Source: an uncultured delta proteobacterium
GTDB taxonomy: Bacteria; Desulfobacterota; Desulfobacteria; Desulfobacterales; B30-G6
Reading direction: 5' to 3'
Length of the DNA stretch: 64,000 nt
Assembly (NCBI GenBank): GCA_963823335.1
Contig: CAWGLD010000001.1
Span: forward strand, 1,120,001-1,184,000
Part shown: positions 29,258 through 37,300 of the stretch, piece by piece
Position numbering within the stretch: the first letter of the stretch is position 1
How the letters are laid out: the number at the start of each line of letters is the position of its first letter
Notes under the pieces: model-generated
Told to the model about the DNA's origin: nothing
What the model saw: the letters and a program-made list of their open reading frames with translations, nothing else
Database searches by the model: none
Made by a program: the position numbers and the translations under genes

Positions 29258-29390
29258 TAGGGGACGTCCTTGACTAAATTGACTAATTTCTATCTGTCCG
29301 AAAAGTTATCTTTGATCAATATTCAAGTGGTGACATGGTATAGAGTCTGTAATATGCCTAATTAGTCAATTTAGTCAAGGACGTCCCCTA
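29258..29390. repeat. 133-bp element with 31-bp perfect inverted arms (MITE/REPIN-like)
   Basis: TAGGGGACGTCCTTGACTAAATTGACTAATT (29258-29288) and its exact reverse complement (29360-29390). Confidence 0.85.
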
Positions 29391-29511: not shown

Positions 29512-30348
29512 CAACCCATCTCAAAAAAAACGAAACAGTATTAAAGCACAACCAAGTTGAAGCATACCAAGGAAATTCTCTACATGGTATTCGTATCGAA
29601 CAACAAGACGCCTGAAGTTTTGGAGCCAGGCAAAAAGCCGTTCGACTTTCCAGCGACGAGTATAGCGTCTAAGTTTACGGCCATCTTGGGTGCGCGGTTT
29701 CTTCCTTCCTTTGCGATGTGGCGAGATCATTTCAATGCCACGTTCCTCGCTAAGCTGCTGATCAAGTTTGTCGCTATCGTAGGCCTTATCCCCAATTATT
29801 TTATCAGGGGCATATTTGGTAAAACCACTGTCAATAGTGGCTTCAACCAATTTCACCTCATGGGGCGAAGCGCTTTCAACGTGAGCGGCGATAGGAAGAC
29901 CAGAAGCGTCTGCGATGGCCATGATCTTGGTGCCTTTGCCGCGTTTCGTCTTGCCGACAGCAAGACCCCTTTTTTTGCCGGCGCGAAGCTGCCGTCTATG
30001 AACGCCTCACGAATGTCAATTTTACCGCGTTCATATAGGTCTTCTGCCAGCTCTTGGACAATCCGTTGGAAAATTCCCTGTCGCACCCATTGCTGGAACC
30101 GCCTATGGCATGTCTGGTATGGCGGATACCGTGGGGGCAGATCTTTCCAAGGTGCTCCGGTTCGAAGAATCCACATTATTCCATTCAATACTTCCCGTGG
30201 ATCCCTTGGCCGGCGGCCTCTCGGGTCTTTTATTGGTGTTAAGGATGAAATCACTGGCTCTATCCGGTTCCATTGTTCGATTGTGAGTTCCATCCTAATT
30301 CTATTACATATTCAGTTCCTTATGTCTAGATTTTTTTGAGATAGGTTG
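29512..30348 (-). mobile_element. IS5-family insertion sequence (IS427-like), apparently intact
   Basis: TIRs CAACC(C/T)ATCTCAAAAAAA; flanking TA duplication restoring a CTAG target; two-ORF transposase. Confidence 0.92.
29521..30293 (-). CDS. IS5 transposase, orfA/orfB joined by programmed -1 frameshift
   Basis: orf[24 protein letters not shown]7G4 slippery run at 29966-29976; orf[36 protein letters not shown]. Confidence 0.92.
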
Positions 30349-30390
30349 TAGTAATTAATACAAATAGTTTAACAATAACTTTCTGTTTCT

Positions 30391-30579
30391 TTAGTCAAAA
30401 CGGGAATTCTTTTTCCTTTTAATTGATAAAATCATTAGACATGCTCCCAATGCTAATCCGATAGAACCCCAGTTGGGGCTGATAATAACACTGCCAACTG
30501 AAATAAAATTATCAGAGCTCATCCAATAACCAGAGGCTAACATTACTATTAAAGCTATAATAGTTAAAAAGTTATTCAT
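30391..30579 (-). CDS. Small two-TM membrane protein, candidate immunity protein
   Basis: 62 aa, two hydrophobic helices and a basic tail; 22 bp downstream of the Rhs C-terminal domain; AT-rich; AAGGA RBS. Confidence 0.55.
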   Translation of the reverse strand: MNNFLTIIALIVMLASGYWMSSDNFISVGSVIISPNWGSIGLALGACLMILSIKRKKNSRFD

Positions 30580-30601
30580 AAGAATTTCCTTTTGTGAAAT
30601 G

Positions 30602-33600
30602 TTACATTTTTGGGAGATTGTTTGTTTCAATATATAAATTTATGGACTCTTCAATGATTTTATCGACGATAGGATCAATAGCAGGATGTGCTTGAACAGC
30701 GGATTGAACTCCTTGTGATATAGCGTCATTACAAGGTGTATCACTGTAAAGAGAACTTTTTAACGCCCTTGCAAAAACACCAATGAACGTAAATGTTGCA
30801 GTAGCTGGAATGTTTCCAGAAAGACCAGATGCAGTACCAAAGACAGTTGCACTATCTATTGTAACATTTAATGTTTTTTCTGAAGGCTTCATATTGTTTC
30901 CAATAAACTTTCCAGCCTCACTGATCGCATGAGCGCCCCCTTTTGTCCCCATTACAAATGCCTTCCCAACTCCAGGAAGGATGTCAGACATCTCTAACCC
31001 ATATGGATCAATAAAATTAGCCGGATTATTTTGTACATACCCATAAAGATCTATATCGCCACCTTCAAATAAAATAGGATCCTTGGCTGTCCATCTTCCG
31101 ATATCGGGGTCGTAATCCCGGTAACCGAATCGGACAAGACGGTGTCTTTGTCGTAAATACTGCCGCCAAACCCAAAGGGGACGTCAAAGAGCGGATTGGT
31201 ATCGAGAATGACATTGCCGAAAGTGTCATACGTTATTTTCTTTATCACGTTTCCTGCTTCATCTGCAACCAGCCTCAAGGAGCCAATAGGATCATATGAC
31301 AGGTAGTAGGTCATATCACCCTGTCTCATTGCCAAGGGCATTCTTCCATCGGCATACTCAAACCGCATGAGAAGATTATCACTGCCATCATATATTGCCA
31401 ACAGTCTTGTCATGCCCAGCCAGAGGTATTTCTCAGTAATAGCGCCATTGATCTTTTTGGCAATTCGTTTGCCTGAGGGGTCATAGATGTATTCGATCTG
31501 CCTGTTGTCAGGCAGTATTACGCTCAAAAGCTCACCATGAGCGGAATAATCATATTGAGTTACATTTGCACCGGCGGTTTTACTGGTTAAAAAGCCATCC
31601 AGGTCGTATTCATAGGAAACAGTACCGACAGTCAGGAGGTGGTCTTCATCTGAATAGGCAAAGCTTCTACCGGGGATATCCCTCAAGCTGTTCATCTCAT
31701 AGGTTCGGGTGCCATTGGAATTATACTGATATTCTTCCACCGGTGTACCGTCTCTGGTTACGATCTGAAGCCTTCCCATGGCATCATAGGTATAAACAAA
31801 ATCAGATGACACACCGGCAATCGTTTCGGTCTTTTGGGTGATCCTGCCGTTATTGTCTCGGGTGAGGTTCCATGAACCGAGGTCCAGCATATTAATCATT
31901 GAGCTTTCTGCCTCGATTTCACCATATCCATTGAAAGTTCGATTGAGATTCAGAGAGGCGCTAATCACCGATTCAGGCAGCCCGTTGTCGATATTCCGGG
32001 TGATGCTAAAAATTCCAGAGCCCGTCATTAATCCATCCTTGTCATATGAGTAGCCTGTTGTTTCTCCGGCATAGGTAAAGGCTTTTAGATTGAAATCATC
32101 GTTATAGGTGTAAACAAGGGCCTGGTTCAGCGTGCCGCTCAAGATTTCCGATGTTAAGAGCCTGCCGTCATATTCAAAGCTGATGCTGTCGGTTCCACTG
32201 GTCATGGATTCCAGCTTGTCTCCGCAAAGATAGGTGTAATTGATATTTCCTTCGGGCGCTTGAACCTGCATGAGTCTGGTTTTATCATAGATATTGATAA
32301 TCTGGTTTCCTGAAGGAAAATTGATTTGGGTCAACTGTCTGTCTCTGTCAAATTCGAAGCTGTAGCTGCCGCTTATGGGTGTCTGGTAAGTGTTATTCAG
32401 ATTGACTTTGTTGTATCCGAATCCATGCTCTATGGTGTTTGGATTTGTAAGCACTGTCATATTGCCGTTGCTGTCGTATGAAAACCAGACCGATGAACTG
32501 TCCGGCCTGTCGATACGCATGACACGCCCGATTTCATCGTAAGCATAGACTGTGGTATGGTTTTCCGCATCTGTAATCGATTCAAGAAAGCCCTCAGCAG
32601 AATAACCATAAGTGGCTTCCCTGATTCCTGTCATGGTTGAGATCATCCGTCCCCTGTCATCATAGCCATACGTTATTTCGTAGAGACCGGGGATTGATAT
32701 GCTGTCTGTCTGCAACGTATCAGGGTTATAAAGCATCGTGGTTGTTCTTCCTTCCGGGGATGTAACTGTTTTTTGAGATTCCAAACTGTCTTCGACGATC
32801 GTTGTTTTTCCGTTTATAGTGATCATCTCTGAAATTGAATCAACACCCCCGGTGCTATAATCCGGCACATATATTTTATCTCTGGCAATGGTTCTTTCCA
32901 GGCCGGATGGGGTTGTCTCTGTTGTTTTCTTGACGAACGTATACCGGTAATCGGGATCGATATCATTCTGGAAAGAAAGTGCCATGCCACATGACAGCGA
33001 TTTGGCCACACGCAGGCCGTCGTCCGAACGACTGTACACGGTTTCCTCGCCGGAAGGCCCGGTAATGGTGGACGTAAAAGCACCGGTTGATTCAATAACA
33101 TCTCGATATGATGTGTTATTGCCTTCAGCAGAGGTGACCTGGACAAGACTGTCGCCGTTGGCGTCTCGATCCTTGCTGTAAGTCCAGGCACCCTCTTCTT
33201 CGTCGGTTACCAGGATGAGTCGCCCGTTTATGTCGAACTGATGCTCAAACCGGTTTCCCTCGGGCTCGAATTTATTTGTCATCAACCCTTCAAGGTCGTA
33301 TTCAAAATCATAATTGGTTCCGTCCGTATAGGTGATTCGATTCAGGTGATTGTTTTCGTCTATGCTTAAGATTGTTGTAAGGCCATCCTGAGAAGTAATG
33401 GATGTGGGAACACCATTTTCGTCTCTTGAAATAGATATTTCATTGCCAAACCGGTCAACCATGGCAATCAGAAGGCTGCTTTCATCATATTCAAAAGAAC
33501 GGTGAGAAATGCCTGTATGCAAGTCAAAGGTCTTTGTGTGCAAACCTGACGCTGAGATGACATGGCCCAGAAGGTTTTCTTCAGAAAAAACATTTTCACC

Positions 33601-36600
33601 GGCCATAATTGTATCTGTGAATGAAGAAGGAAAGGAGACTTTTTTAACCAGATGACTGGTATTGTCGGCAATGAAAATATTTCCATCATCGTCGACCGCG
33701 ATACCCAGTGGATGTCTGAATTTAGCCAGGGTTGCAGGGCCCGTTTTCACATCATAAGCATATACCCCTGAACCGGCAATGGTCGTGATGATTCCACTGG
33801 TATTGACCATCCGGATACGTGAATTGCTATCATCTGCTATATATATATTTCCCACATTGTCCACAGCTACATCTCGGGGATAAAAAAGCTGAGCTTCGAC
33901 AGCCGGACCACCGTCACCACTGAATCCCCGACTGCTTGTTCCGGCAAAGGTGGTGATAATGCCGCCAGTGTCAATTCGCCTGATAACATGGGGTCCATAT
34001 GCACTGACATCGGTAATGTATATATTGCCGGCTTGATCAACGGCAACACCTTCAGGCTGGTAAATCTGTGCATTGACGGCCATTCCACCGTCACCGCTAT
34101 GACCTGCTCCATTGCCACCGACAATTGTTGTAATAATACCATTTGTATCGATTTTTCGGACACAATTATTGTAGCTATCTGCAATGTAAAGGTTCCCGAC
34201 ATCATCAACAGCTACGCCTTTTGGGGAATAAAGCCGTGCCTGTGTTGCCGGTCCGTTATCGCCACCGTAGCCGGATGACCCGGGTATACCTGCAATGGTA
34301 TTGATGATACCATTGGCATCGATTTTTCGAATACAGGAATTCCCAATATCTGAAAAATAGATATTCCCGTTACTATCGACCGCAATTCCCCCACAGCCTT
34401 CAATTCTTGCTTCGACTGCCGGACCTCCATCACCGCTAAAACCCCATCCCTGATACAGTCCAGTAAGGTTATTGAGGATACCGTTTGTATCTATTTTATA
34501 AATCACACCGTAGAAATCTAGTGCTACATAAACATTCCCTTCAGTGTCCACCGCCACCTTATTTGGAAAGCCTAATGGATAAAGGTTACCGGTGCCGGCA
34601 AATCTTTCAATCATACGAACATTGCTGGACACTGTCGTACCATCTCCTTTATGTAACGTGGAAAGATCCTGCGAATTCATATGATGGTGATTTGAAATGG
34701 TCCATCCCTCGGCGAAATCTTTTGTGCCCTTACTTCGGGACGGGTGAATCATGAGGCTGTTGTTTTTGGTTAATATAATTTCCTGGCGAGCGGGGATTTC
34801 TGTGGTTTCGACCCCTGGCTGGCTGAATGCCTGGTCAAAATCACCCGCAGCATAGTATATTGAGTCATAGACAAACCCAACAGTCACATGTGCTGGAATT
34901 GGTGTTTGAAGGAGCCTTCCCAGATAGTCCAAACCATCCCAAAAGAACTCCGCTACTTGATCAGGATCCGGCGGCAGTTCCTGTTTCTGAACCGTACCGG
35001 CGATGTTAACAGCGACTTCGATTCTTTTCAGGCTATCCGGGACCGTTTCACCGCTTGCAGGAACCGTAATTATGGTGTTATAGCCTTCAGCCCTGTTGCT
35101 GGTGTAATGCAGGGTAATATCTGTTCCAGGGATGGGTATGTCCTCGTGGACAATACGCCCGCGCTCATCTACGAGGGAAGCCGTATAGTTACCATAGCAA
35201 TTTTCATTACCGGCCGGATTCTGATCGGATTCCGGACCGAAAGTTGAATTCGGTCCTATTGCCGTTGGGGGCGTTCCGGATGGAAGGTTCCAATCGCCAG
35301 GTGTAAAATGTGTTGTTTCTACACGCCAATACGTTGTTTCCGGTATATATTGATGCGAATCCTCAAGCCCTGTGACCTCATCTATGAATGACCCATTGTC
35401 ATTGAGATCATCCGGCTGATCATCACCATCCGCATCCAAAGCATCTACAATGGTATCTGCATTGGTATCCAGGAGCCTGACAACAACCCCATTATCTGAT
35501 GGTTCCCATAAGCCCCGAGCCCTGTTATAAAACCCAGCCGGAATAACCTCGCCGACATCAAATCCTAAGAAGTTATCCACCCAAATAATAATGGGATCTG
35601 AAAAACTCACGTTTTTCACACCATCCACGGAAAGTTCTACACAATATGTATAGGCGGAGTTAGGCGGCAGTTCTGCAGGCATTGATTCAGGCGTGGTATA
35701 CTCGGTGGAGCGCGTAGTGATGGTGGTAAGTTCTCCTAATATATTTCCATTCGGGTCAACTTCATAGGCTTTGTTGCTGCCTGTGAATACCGTAGAGCAG
35801 GATCTGCTTCCAAAAGCATCGGTCACCTGGGTGCTTTTATGCGTAATGACCGTGGACGGGTTATCATCAAACGTAAACGTTGTAGAAGCCGGGTCAGGTT
35901 CGATCAGTGCAATGGTTTCACTAACAACAATATCGTTATGACCTGTACGCACCTTTCTTTGACTCGAAAGATAGTCCTCTTTTTGATAGACAATTGTCAG
36001 TGTATCTCCGCCTTCGGCAGGAATGGAAAAACGCCCGGATTGATCTGTTGCAGCCGTGCCATACTCGGGATGATCGAGAATCTTCGTTGTTACGCCTGCT
36101 AAGGGGGTACCGGCAATGTCGGTTACAATCCCGGTTAGAACGATCATTCTTTCTACACTATACGATGGCAAGCTGGCATCTTCCGGGATAAGGTCCTCAT
36201 ACTGTTTTCCGAATGAACCCTCGGGTTGGGGTTCGGGGAGATGCCCACGTACTTTGACGACTGTCGTAAGAAAGAGCGACCCATCAGCATTTGTTGCCGA
36301 CAGAGAATAAGTGGTGGTGTATGCCGGTGTGACAACACGGCTTCCGCTGGGCAATTCTTCACTTACAACTGCACCGTCTTTAATGAAGACAGTATCATAT
36401 CCGTCTGCGGACCAACTCAGGGTTGTAGAATCACCATAGTCCAATTCAGTATCGGATACCACCAGGCCGACCAGGGGTGTTATAACCACTGTAATGGCTT
36501 TTTGTTCAGAAACAATCCCGCCGGGGCCTGTGGCGGTAAGAGTATAGGTGGTCGTTTCGGTGGGTGAAACCGTCATCGAGCCACTATCGACCACCATTCC

Positions 36601-37107
36601 GACACCTTGGTCTATTTCGACGGTATCCGCATTCGTTGTTTCCCATGCAAGTACAGACGATTCTCCCTGAAGAATTGAATCGGGATATATGGTAAAATCA
36701 ATCACAGGTGGTGGAATCGGACCGTCTGCATTTTCAATCTTGACATTAATTGAGGCTCCGGGGGTACCCCCAAGAAATGCGGTTAAGTGATTAGAAGCAT
36801 TTAAGGTAATTTCTCTGGACAAATCAATTTCATTTCCAGAAAAGAACTGAATCAGGGGAATGAAGGTGCCATTAAGAAATAGAAAACCAGCGCTGATTAC
36901 CTGACCAGGTGTATTTTTTGTAATGGTTAAAACGCCATCGCCTGGCGTTTGGATTGAAAACGAATACCGGGAGAGATGTAAGTGAAAACTACCTACCTCC
37001 AAATCCTTTGGTCCAAACACGGTCGGTTCATTCGCGTAGGTTATGGATGAAATGATAGAAAACAACATGAAGATGATAATCGGAAAAACAATGGATTTAT
37101 TGTTCAT
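30602..37107 (-). pseudogene. Teneurin-like NHL/YD-repeat (Rhs) protein with C-terminal cargo domain; single frameshift at ~31140
   Basis: Signal peptide, Ig-like repeats, carboxypeptidase-regulatory-like domain, IPIPGTDITLHYTSNRAEG, six NHL repeats, YD repeats; restoring one G gives [43 protein letters not shown], continuing into ORF 30602-30991. Confidence 0.9.
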
Positions 37108-37300
37108 GACAGCCCTCCTCAACACTTCATTGAGTGTCTCACCCTAAAGGCGATACGGTTTTATTTTTAGTAAAATCGTTTTATGCTTCTATAGGGTGTA
37201 TGATGCCAAAGGACTATCTAAAATCAATCCTGGTAAAATGCCCTGTTAATGCGGTATAAAATTACGTAGAAGCTGTTGATGTGATTTTGAGGAGCCTGAT

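Follow-up and report, generated by a model that had tools for sequence, protein, structure and literature searches.

Teneurin-like proteins (TLPs) were defined as polymorphic toxins by Raoelijaona et al. (Nat Commun, February 2026; PMC13018210), with BiTLP of Bacillus inaquosorum (PDB 9ifo, 9pt5) as the type example. Cryo-EM of BiTLP revealed a closed superfold of plug, NHL propeller and shell, with the last 92 residues held inside and cleaved (PMC13018210). Here we describe a locus of this class in an uncultured delta proteobacterium (Desulfobacterota; Desulfobacteria; Desulfobacterales; B30-G6), found in a stretch of 64,000 nucleotides of contig CAWGLD010000001.1 (positions 1,120,001 to 1,184,000, assembly GCA_963823335.1), which is called the window below. 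The locus, at window positions 30391 to 37107 on the minus strand, is very probably a two-gene TLP-class polymorphic toxin module, with Sec export, a caged cargo that acts on the envelope, two self-cleavages, a disulfide and a cognate immunity protein.

TLP cargos are polymorphic and of ~15 kDa, with predicted enzymes among them, and four are toxic to E. coli: that of Bacillus, which made the cells permeable once directed to the periplasm, and three of nine others. The gene just downstream acts as immunity in TLP systems (PMC13018210). In BiTLP, two aspartates and one arginine bring about a cleavage after the Rhs motif, and a second one takes place before Ser724 in a plug loop; the cryo-EM structure contains a disulfide between the plug-loop Cys719 and the cargo Cys2216 (PMC13018210). 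TTR followed by TIP is found upstream of the plug in 96% of TLPs. The phyla that carry TLPs include Thermodesulfobacteriota, and in each phylum other than Myxococcota <3% of species have one. Lipoprotein (type II) signals are predicted for the TLPs of the Gram-negative Myxococcota and S-layer or wall anchors for those of Gram-positive bacteria, while delivery and release are explicitly left open (PMC13018210).

The window protein has TTR, TIP, FN-plug, NHL, YD shell and Rhs core end in the same order as BiTLP, and it shares with BiTLP the core-end arginine and both aspartates, the plug serine, the plug cysteine and a short cargo with one cysteine; a small gene follows immediately downstream, as in the Bacillus locus. 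The features of TLPs that are found in the window are thus the plug, the six-bladed NHL propeller, the YD shell, TTR with TIP, a bipartite DPxG core end with arginine, a plug serine with a nearby cysteine, and a short, highly polymorphic C-terminal domain. Unlike BiTLP, the window copy is frame-shifted. Its signal is of type I, in contrast to the type II signals predicted for the Gram-negative Myxococcota TLPs, and its cargo and candidate immunity protein belong to other families. TLPs are also common in the family to which the window genome belongs (11 of the 14 other genomes), whereas the figure for phyla outside Myxococcota is the <3% of species given above. The first-pass annotation of this DNA had ranked the locus as the best candidate for an undescribed system. 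This did not hold, because PMC13018210 covers the structure, the caged and cleaved toxin, the polymorphic C-termini and the downstream immunity genes; what is new is the particular cargo/immunity pair, together with some regularities of the whole family.

Metazoan teneurins (6fb3, 6fay, 7bam, 8fia) share the superfold of FN-plug, NHL and YD shell, which can be recognised by sequence. A transmembrane anchor, EGF repeats, ABD and Tox-GHH, by contrast, were missing from the Pfam scan of the window protein, which carries a Sec signal where metazoan teneurins have a type II membrane topology. It also keeps the self-cleavage motif, which mammalian teneurins are without (PMC13018210). The YD shell and Rhs core end are likewise shared with type VI Rhs effectors (7q97, 8h8a, 8qja), although PDB matches to these take in no more than the core end and stretches of the shell. 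These effectors combine a caged polymorphic toxin with two self-cleavages and an immunity gene, for which the window has counterparts that are in part predicted. Unlike them, the window protein lacks a PAAR/VgrG-binding N-terminus, and possesses a Sec signal, a plug and an NHL propeller.

ABC toxins of the TcB-TcC type target insect cells and are not known to have an immunity gene. Their YD cocoon encloses a C-terminal toxin that is freed by a core-end aspartyl protease (4o9x, 6h6e), much as is proposed for the TLP, and the window core end matches TcdB2-TccC3 at E 6e-6 to 2e-4 over ~50 residues only. The resemblance does not extend to a TcB-type propeller or SpvB, which were absent from the Pfam scan, nor to a TcA partner, which was not seen among the 20 neighbouring open reading frames (ORFs) scanned. 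A more distant parallel is CdiA-CT/CdiI of E. coli EC93, a small membrane-acting, contact-dependent toxin with an inner-membrane immunity protein. The analogy with the window pair is functional only, as the delivery scaffold differs and no relation in sequence or fold was found in Pfam, NCBIfam, the ESM Atlas or the PDB.

Domain architecture of the window protein

The module consists of the following features, given in the direction of transcription with window coordinates.

37033..37107, minus strand: start codon and Sec type I signal peptide, 25 residues (direct translation)
36730..37044, minus strand: unnamed N-terminal beta-sandwich, residues ~28-132 of the window protein, P0001 (AlphaFold2 model, pLDDT 86)
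36247..36705, minus strand: two tandem Ig-like repeats, residues ~141-214 and ~218-293 (BLASTP, AlphaFold2, Foldseek)
35908..36153, minus strand: TTR domain, residues 325-406 (Pfam TTR_TEN1-4, E 7.2e-15; beta domain in the AlphaFold2 model)
35230..35910, minus strand: TIP region between TTR and plug, residues 406-632 (phmmer to BiTLP)
34822..35199, minus strand: FN-plug, residues 643-768, including Cys643 (35197-35199) and Ser650 (35176-35178) (phmmer alignment)
33571..34608, minus strand: six-bladed NHL beta-propeller (Pfam TEN_NHL, E 2.9e-46; NHL, E 1.3e-26)
31141..33561, minus strand: YD-repeat shell up to the break (Pfam TEN_YD-shell and RHS_repeat; phmmer)
31139..31141, minus strand: one-base frame shift that splits the gene in the assembly (three-frame translation and DNA)
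30995..31138, minus strand: Rhs-associated core end, 48 residues, in the shifted frame (phmmer to BiTLP 2097-2144, E 1.9e-16)
30605..30994, minus strand: cargo, the predicted C-terminal toxin domain, 130 residues, 13.5 kDa (stop codon 30602-30604)
30391..30579, minus strand: candidate immunity gene, 62 residues with two hydrophobic helices (22 nucleotides past the cargo stop, preceded by AAAGGAAA)

In a search against all PDB sequences with phmmer, the best solved relative of the window protein is the Bacillus TLP (9ifo_A/9pt5_A, E 1.1e-240), followed by 16 animal teneurin sequences (E 8.6e-70 to 9.8e-57, query residues 654-1997) and, below these, by type VI Rhs proteins. This supports, at the level of sequence, that the window protein carries the teneurin superfold. 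Most of it is encoded by an ORF of 2024 codons (31051-37125, minus strand), the likely start of which is the methionine at 37107; with the frame restored, the full precursor has ~2160 residues. The residues after Met 37107, MNNKSIVFPIIIFMLFSIISSITYA, form a classical signal of Sec type I, and no lipobox cysteine is present in the translation.

The first 400 residues form four beta domains in the AlphaFold2 model (pLDDT 86), which are the unnamed sandwich (strands at residues 4-108 of model m685935c9004a), two Ig-like repeats and TTR. The Ig-like repeats, of ~80 residues each, are 36% identical to each other (BLASTP, E 6e-10). The best Foldseek matches of the modelled N-terminal part are strings of Ig-like domains in bacterial adhesins and receptor ectodomains (E 7.6e-9 and weaker), while Pfam gave no Ig domain and nothing useful for the N-terminal 300 residues. 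The CarboxypepD_reg model stayed below the Pfam cut-off (E 1e-4, 23 bits). The TIP region has no match among Pfam models and aligns with BiTLP 479-708 (E 5.9e-35), 9ifo_A and 9pt5_A being the sole two PDB sequences matched by phmmer. TIP was assigned as the segment between TTR and plug, following the scheme of PMC13018210, the text of which gives no residue numbers for the BiTLP TIP borders.

The plug (query residues 640-800) matched BiTLP 721-844 at E 3.6e-14 and 16 teneurin sequences at E 1e-12 to 3.5e-7 (phmmer, PDB), while the Pfam model FN-plug_TEN1-4 taken alone remained below its cut-off (E 3.2e-3, 18.1 against 27.8 bits). The blade motif [VI]A[VL]D..GN.[YF] was counted six times in the NHL propeller. 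The shell matches TEN_YD-shell above the cut-off (residues 1189-1997, E 6.8e-22) and RHS_repeat at E 1.9e-30. The domain order read in the first-pass annotation, which comprised a Sec signal peptide, Ig-like repeats, a carboxypeptidase-regulatory-like segment (here TTR), a plug-like segment, six NHL repeats and a long YD-repeat region in a teneurin superfold, was therefore borne out in each of these parts.

Core end and self-cleavage residues

The 48-residue core end aligns residue by residue with that of BiTLP and keeps the equivalents of R2103, D2116, D2140 and L2144; the conserved arginine is encoded at 31118-31120, the catalytic aspartates at 31079-31081 and 31007-31009, and the DPYGL motif is predicted to be cleaved after 30995-30997. 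It also matches the NCBIfam model Rhs_assc_core (E 1.2e-14) and is present as a single copy in the genome. The Rhs core end had been named in the first-pass annotation and is indeed present with all its cleavage residues, but it does not lie in the 2024-codon frame: it follows a frame shift at 31139-31141, at which the annotation had hinted only with the word "frame-repaired".

Homologues of the window protein number 1013 at E<=0.001 in a word-indexed search, and the surveys below rest on the best 120 of these; the named sources among the homologues listed are Desulfobacterales, Thermodesulfobacteriota and a Candidatus Electrothrix. Ser650 of the window protein aligns with the plug cleavage residue S724 of BiTLP, and Cys643 lies seven residues upstream. 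In the 113 of 120 family members in which the plug site could be anchored (seven could not be), the residue at the cleavage position is serine in 108, cysteine in four and threonine in one, all three being capable of acting as a nucleophile, and 112 of the 113 have a cysteine at most 12 residues upstream.

A second cysteine is found in the cargo. It is present in 108 of 109 cargos, compared with 54 expected at the cysteine frequency of the family (0.61%), and 90 cargos have exactly one, as has the window cargo (30731-30733). Proline precedes 75 of the 152 cargo cysteines, and in 39 of the 90 cargos with a single cysteine this is the penultimate residue. Within the cargo family of the window the motif cysteine can be lost and recur near the C-terminus, which favours a role as a tether over a catalytic one. 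The main text of PMC13018210 gives the disulfide for the Bacillus protein only, and our survey, as a pattern of residues, generalises that single observation beyond it.

Joint variation of cargo and downstream gene

With the query set aside, 119 homologues remain, of which 109 have a cargo of at least 60 residues behind a core end; six had no core-end motif and four had shorter cargos. The median cargo length, in a subset of 87, is 110 residues. With one further cargo added to the 109 (that of the same-genus genome G401 for the clustering, that of the window for the tree), the 110 cargos fall into 52 BLAST clusters, the largest of which, with 10 members by single linkage, is the family of the window cargo. 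The cargo cluster changes 87 times on the shell tree, where the possible minimum is 51 and shuffling gave 93-97 (the five values printed of 200 shuffles). The observed number is near the shuffled values, and the cargos are therefore almost independent of the phylogeny of the shell.

The first-pass annotation had proposed to examine whether the region after DPxGL and the downstream gene vary together while the core is conserved, and this is what we found. At eight loci of the window's taxonomic family, the shells are 53-82% identical, and in 27 of the 28 locus pairs the identity is at noise level for both the cargo (<=32%) and the downstream ORF (<=34%). The single pair with the same cargo (88%) also has the same downstream ORF (67%). 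The aligned loci thus indicate that cargo and downstream ORF are swapped jointly at a syntenic locus while the shell is conserved, so that the C-terminus is variable and linked to a small gene, next to a shell with a clear teneurin match.

The gene is present in six of nine other genomes of the window's genus, and the genus copies occupy the same chromosomal place. The order MFS-aminotransferase-GNAT-EamA-TLP is complete in G404 and found in parts in G407, G403 and G402; in G407 the upstream neighbours aminotransferase and EamA are fragments only. Farther away, 52 of 400 other genomes sampled from the phylum match part of the query, mostly in the NHL region, and at least 17 of these also match the plug, while the 13 genomes of the same order within that sample gave no match. 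In the separate set of relatives, the plug was also matched in five of 26 genomes from other families of the order.

Genes for Y1 (IS200-like) transposases with a DnaA_C-type helix-turn-helix were seen at the 3' ends of three TLP genes (L007:516-1523, L042:2751-3770 and L044:9714-10712), after the immunity ORF in L007 and after a cut or very short C-terminus in L042 and L044. In protein P0150, an in-frame fusion joins a Y1 transposase to the remnant of a core end and a cargo that shares 74% identity with that of the window. Y1 transposases were considered as movers of cargo cassettes, but with three of 45 loci and P0150, and with DNA flanks that have no common borders, we make no claim for them.

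Proposed mechanism

In the mechanism that we propose, the precursor encoded by gene 1 would leave by Sec, with a type I signal and not as a lipoprotein. The beta-sandwich, the two Ig-like repeats, TTR and TIP would form a display or binding end, and FN-plug, NHL propeller and YD shell would close into the teneurin superfold. On the model of the solved Bacillus TLP, the cargo, which makes up the C-terminal 130 residues, would fold back into the shell cavity, a first self-cleavage would take place after DPYGL through the arginine and two aspartates of the Rhs aspartyl protease, and a second one in the plug loop before Ser650. The sole cysteine of the cargo would then be linked by a disulfide to Cys643 of the plug loop. 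The cargo, predicted to be a small helical protein rich in small residues, would act on the envelope of the target cell, and gene 2 would encode a 62-residue membrane protein that protects the producer. That the locus encodes a Sec-exported toxin cage with a candidate immunity gene, as the first-pass annotation had suggested, is well supported.

Several points weigh against this mechanism. The cage, the cleavages, the disulfide, the toxicity and the immunity are modelled on one solved relative, with ~1100 alignable residues, and a periplasmic disulfide is not self-evident in a strict anaerobe of sulfidic sediment. The AlphaFold2 model of the cargo, with five helices, is poor (pLDDT 61.6), the cargo shows no tie to a known pore former or enzyme in Pfam, NCBIfam, the ESM Atlas or PDB folds, and its hydrophobicity is moderate, with a Kyte-Doolittle (KD) maximum of 1.14. 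Furthermore, the immunity family of the window (A5) and the ORFs found beside related cargos (A3) gave hhalign probabilities of 18% with a single sequence and 8% between profiles, which does not support homology of the two small-ORF families; what they have in common is architecture only. The remaining points concern the gene itself, which is broken in the window assembly, and this copy may yield no cargo.

State of the window copy

Past the sequence ...GGSIYDKDT, the 2024-codon frame reads 35 residues unlike the core end of the family and then stops, while the remaining core end (48 residues) and the 130-residue cargo continue in another frame up to a stop at 30602; an ORF of 129 residues (30602-30991) is the cargo itself. 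One uninterrupted reading frame is thus not found in the window assembly, a result which bears on the state of the window copy and not on the identity of the gene. In close homologues (70-82% identical, 2121-2164 residues) the frame is uninterrupted. We compared the site with contigs from four public metagenome runs, each of a different study, over positions 30300-32300. Both contigs that bridge 31139-31141 have one extra base and an open frame, whereas those of runs X2 and X5 do not span the site. The bridging contig of run X1 (record 5) has no other difference from the window over 31091-31503 (413 bases); that of run X6 (record 21) is a variant with 24 differences over 30890-31555. Run X1 may be the source sample of the window, in which case its contig is not independent.

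The window copy could be a dead gene, in which a real frame shift leaves the shell short of core end and cargo and the module is in decay, with the adjoining insertion sequence (IS) as part of the erosion. Beyond the frame shift itself, this would agree with the database protein P0004 of a very closely related genome, which shares the start methionine, differs at 6 of 1943 residues and ends at residue 1949, 36 residues ahead of the window break, and with the same-genus orthologue G407, which is split in two frames at a different place (L034 3937-9501 and 9534-10448); the gene may therefore be decaying in this lineage. Two other TLPs of the phylum, L042 and L044, have the cut or very short C-termini beside transposase genes mentioned above, and an IS4/IS5-family element adjoins the immunity ORF. 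Against a dead gene stand the two bridging contigs, with their extra base and open frame and, in one of them, identity to the window over the rest of 413 bases, as well as the absence of any further indel reported in the gene part of the compared 2-kb stretch. All catalytic residues, the 130-residue cargo frame and the immunity ORF are moreover intact 3' of the break. We therefore consider decay unlikely, and the most likely explanation of the frame shift is a mistake in the assembly or a strain variant that arose very recently. Programmed frame shifting was also considered and dropped, as close homologues and bridging contigs are plainly in frame.

The cargo and the candidate immunity protein

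The cargo consists of a linker of ~36 residues and a core of ~95, in which the family alignment shows PSExxL, a helix-turn-helix rich in small residues, the motif LYS-D/N-T/S-P-C-N-D-A and the end NLPKM-COOH. Cargo residues 1-36 (30887-30994; xxSDIxPGVxKAIVEGTKGG...) recur before the unrelated cargos of P0086 and P0073, which suggests from the alignment that they are a separate linker or pre-toxin module. The cargo had been called unrecognised in the first-pass annotation, and our searches agree: no Pfam family was matched, NCBIfam matched the core end only, the best score in the ESM Atlas (0.82) is within the range of noise, and the low-confidence model had no Foldseek match in the PDB at E<=0.001.

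When 1.84 billion representatives were searched in full with HMMER, 14 matched the cargo family, of which 11 were inspected (the remaining ones being P0132, P0134 and P0135); nine are true, mostly C-terminal fragments of Rhs-type proteins, and two are spurious. The latter, P0124 (3274 residues, 34 stretches) and P0137 (490 residues, 5 stretches), are tandem-repeat proteins unlike the cargo by eye and were rejected as relatives. A narrow cargo pattern matched 270 stretches in 185,579 species genomes, none of which encodes a relative, and the motifs TPCNDA, SPCNDA and NLPKM were not found in five supplementary text files of PMC13018210. As far as these sequence searches reach, the cargo family is rare and has no name. 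A distant member is encoded by G401 (HMM E 4.3e-15). The same cargo is also found without a shell in P0126, a metagenome protein of 403 residues with a signal peptide, a segment that reads by eye as a carboxypeptidase-regulatory-like domain, only the last part of an Rhs core, and the cargo; the cargo is therefore common to different delivery scaffolds.

The candidate immunity gene of the first-pass annotation proved to be a real ORF of 62 codons. It is single-copy in the genome and has 12 database homologues (58-82% identity), and its two hydrophobic segments reach KD maxima of 1.77 and 1.51. All six metagenome loci with this cargo family (L003-L008) have an ORF of 50-65 residues with two helices 56-254 nucleotides downstream, and the distant cargo of G401 is followed by a two-helix ORF of 47 residues, so that with the window a small two-helix ORF stands just downstream at 8/8 inspected loci, in three sequence types. 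In the database, an immunity homologue (P0138, 77%) and a cargo homologue (P0117, 81%) both come from contigs of 10586 nucleotides. We infer that the 62-residue membrane protein is the cognate immunity protein, and that the cargo acts on the envelope of the target cell, at the inner membrane or the periplasmic face, because its partner is an integral membrane protein with two helices. Envelope action fits the behaviour of the Bacillus cargo, and also the membrane-like segments of the clade, in which 44 of 109 cargos, compared with none of 109 shell controls, have a 19-residue stretch with KD>=1.6.

The module could instead carry a cargo that acts elsewhere, as a small inhibitor or enzyme whose target lies in the cytoplasm, in which case the two-helix ORF would protect indirectly or serve export or release. 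The modest hydrophobicity of the window cargo would fit such a role, as would the conserved polar motif in its C-terminal half, which is accompanied by an invariant tyrosine, and the predicted enzymes among TLP cargos (PMC13018210). However, the cysteine of that motif is tyrosine in P0128 and P0131, and G401-type cargos carry a cysteine near the C-terminus instead, so that a catalytic cysteine is unlikely; the cargo family has no invariant histidine or acidic residue, and the two-helix partner recurs at every locus inspected. On this evidence a target outside the envelope is improbable, and we retain envelope action as the reading of the cargo. That the protein is mainly a molecule of cell-cell adhesion or recognition, with a structural or signalling peptide at its C-terminus and an unrelated small membrane protein next to it, is very improbable: its Ig-like repeats resemble adhesin extenders, the Discussion of PMC13018210 leaves a signalling role open, the gene holds a conserved position in the genus and TLPs are frequent in the family, and the cargo has no recognisable toxin fold, but the protein keeps every self-cleavage residue lost from animal teneurins, four TLP cargos are toxic to E. 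coli (PMC13018210), and the hypervariable C-terminus is swapped along with the next gene over a conserved shell, which is the signature of a toxin-immunity conflict and not of a conserved ligand.

Other downstream ORFs in this family, at L036:10731-11048, L034:10490-10807 and L041:8698-8943, have two membrane helices and CxxC...CxxC ends that resemble zinc ribbons, and the partners of cargos of these types are nearly all small membrane proteins. Behind the cargo and small ORF of L008, an orphan core-end fragment with a different C-terminal domain is found (L008:603-1049), as displaced cassettes commonly leave behind in Rhs loci.

A possible disulfide-linked heterodimer

The cysteine survey allows a further reading, which we advance tentatively and regard as possible but not probable: the cysteine pair may be a built-in rule of the TLP class, with the shell as a folding cage, and the active species may be a heterodimer of N-terminal fragment and cargo linked by the disulfide. 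The toxin would then be an exported A-B toxin assembled from both ends of a single chain (Ig-like repeats, TTR, TIP and first plug strand, plus the cargo), in which the N-terminal fragment binds and aids entry and reduction in the target frees the cargo. This would explain why unrelated cargos have a single cysteine, often penultimate and after proline, and why the cysteine is mobile. In Desulfobacterota, such a heterodimer would work without a lipid anchor or a type VI apparatus.

Whether or not a heterodimer forms, one cargo cysteine, a partner cysteine in the plug and a serine, cysteine or threonine as plug nucleophile hold across more than 100 relatives, so that a single structural observation becomes a testable rule for how the toxin is held and handed over. 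The cargo/immunity pair, which belongs to no known family, is a small and cheap target for assays of toxicity and rescue. In this clade of relatives of sediment sulfate reducers TLPs are the norm, at a fixed site and with swapped cargos, which offers a natural series for the exchange of cassettes.

Export and genome context

The host appears to be Gram-negative, because a porin gene lies in the window. A signal-like N-terminus was found in 100 of the 119 homologues, and a lipobox-like motif in only three of those 100 by a crude rule, unlike the prediction for Myxococcota TLPs; this suggests that Gram-negative TLPs need not be lipoproteins and sharpens the question of how a 220-kDa protein leaves the periplasm. 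The genome (4.37 Mb, 11 contigs, 93.9% complete) has five secretin genes. The first-pass annotation had seen no VgrG or PAAR gene in the window, and this extends to the whole genome for PAAR (PF05488) and the sheath protein VipB/TssC (PF05943), with no match to either, VgrG not having been searched genome-wide. With no match to VipB or PAAR in the genome, delivery would be independent of type VI secretion.

The neighbours of the TLP gene are housekeeping genes, and scans for promoters and terminators at both ends of the operon gave nothing above the shuffled expectation on the strand of the gene. The downstream border of the module is formed by one further feature.

29521..30354, minus strand: IS4/IS5-family insertion sequence (Pfam DUF4096 and DDE_Tnp_1, two overlapping frames)

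A second copy of this element, 96% identical, lies on genome contig 4, and contigs of three public runs diverge from the window at 30350-30353, the end of the element. It adjoins the immunity ORF and is no part of the toxin system. Beyond it, a perfect inverted repeat of 31 nucleotides (29258-29288 and 29360-29390), similar copies of which occur at several places in the genome, may be a REP-like (repetitive extragenic palindromic) element.

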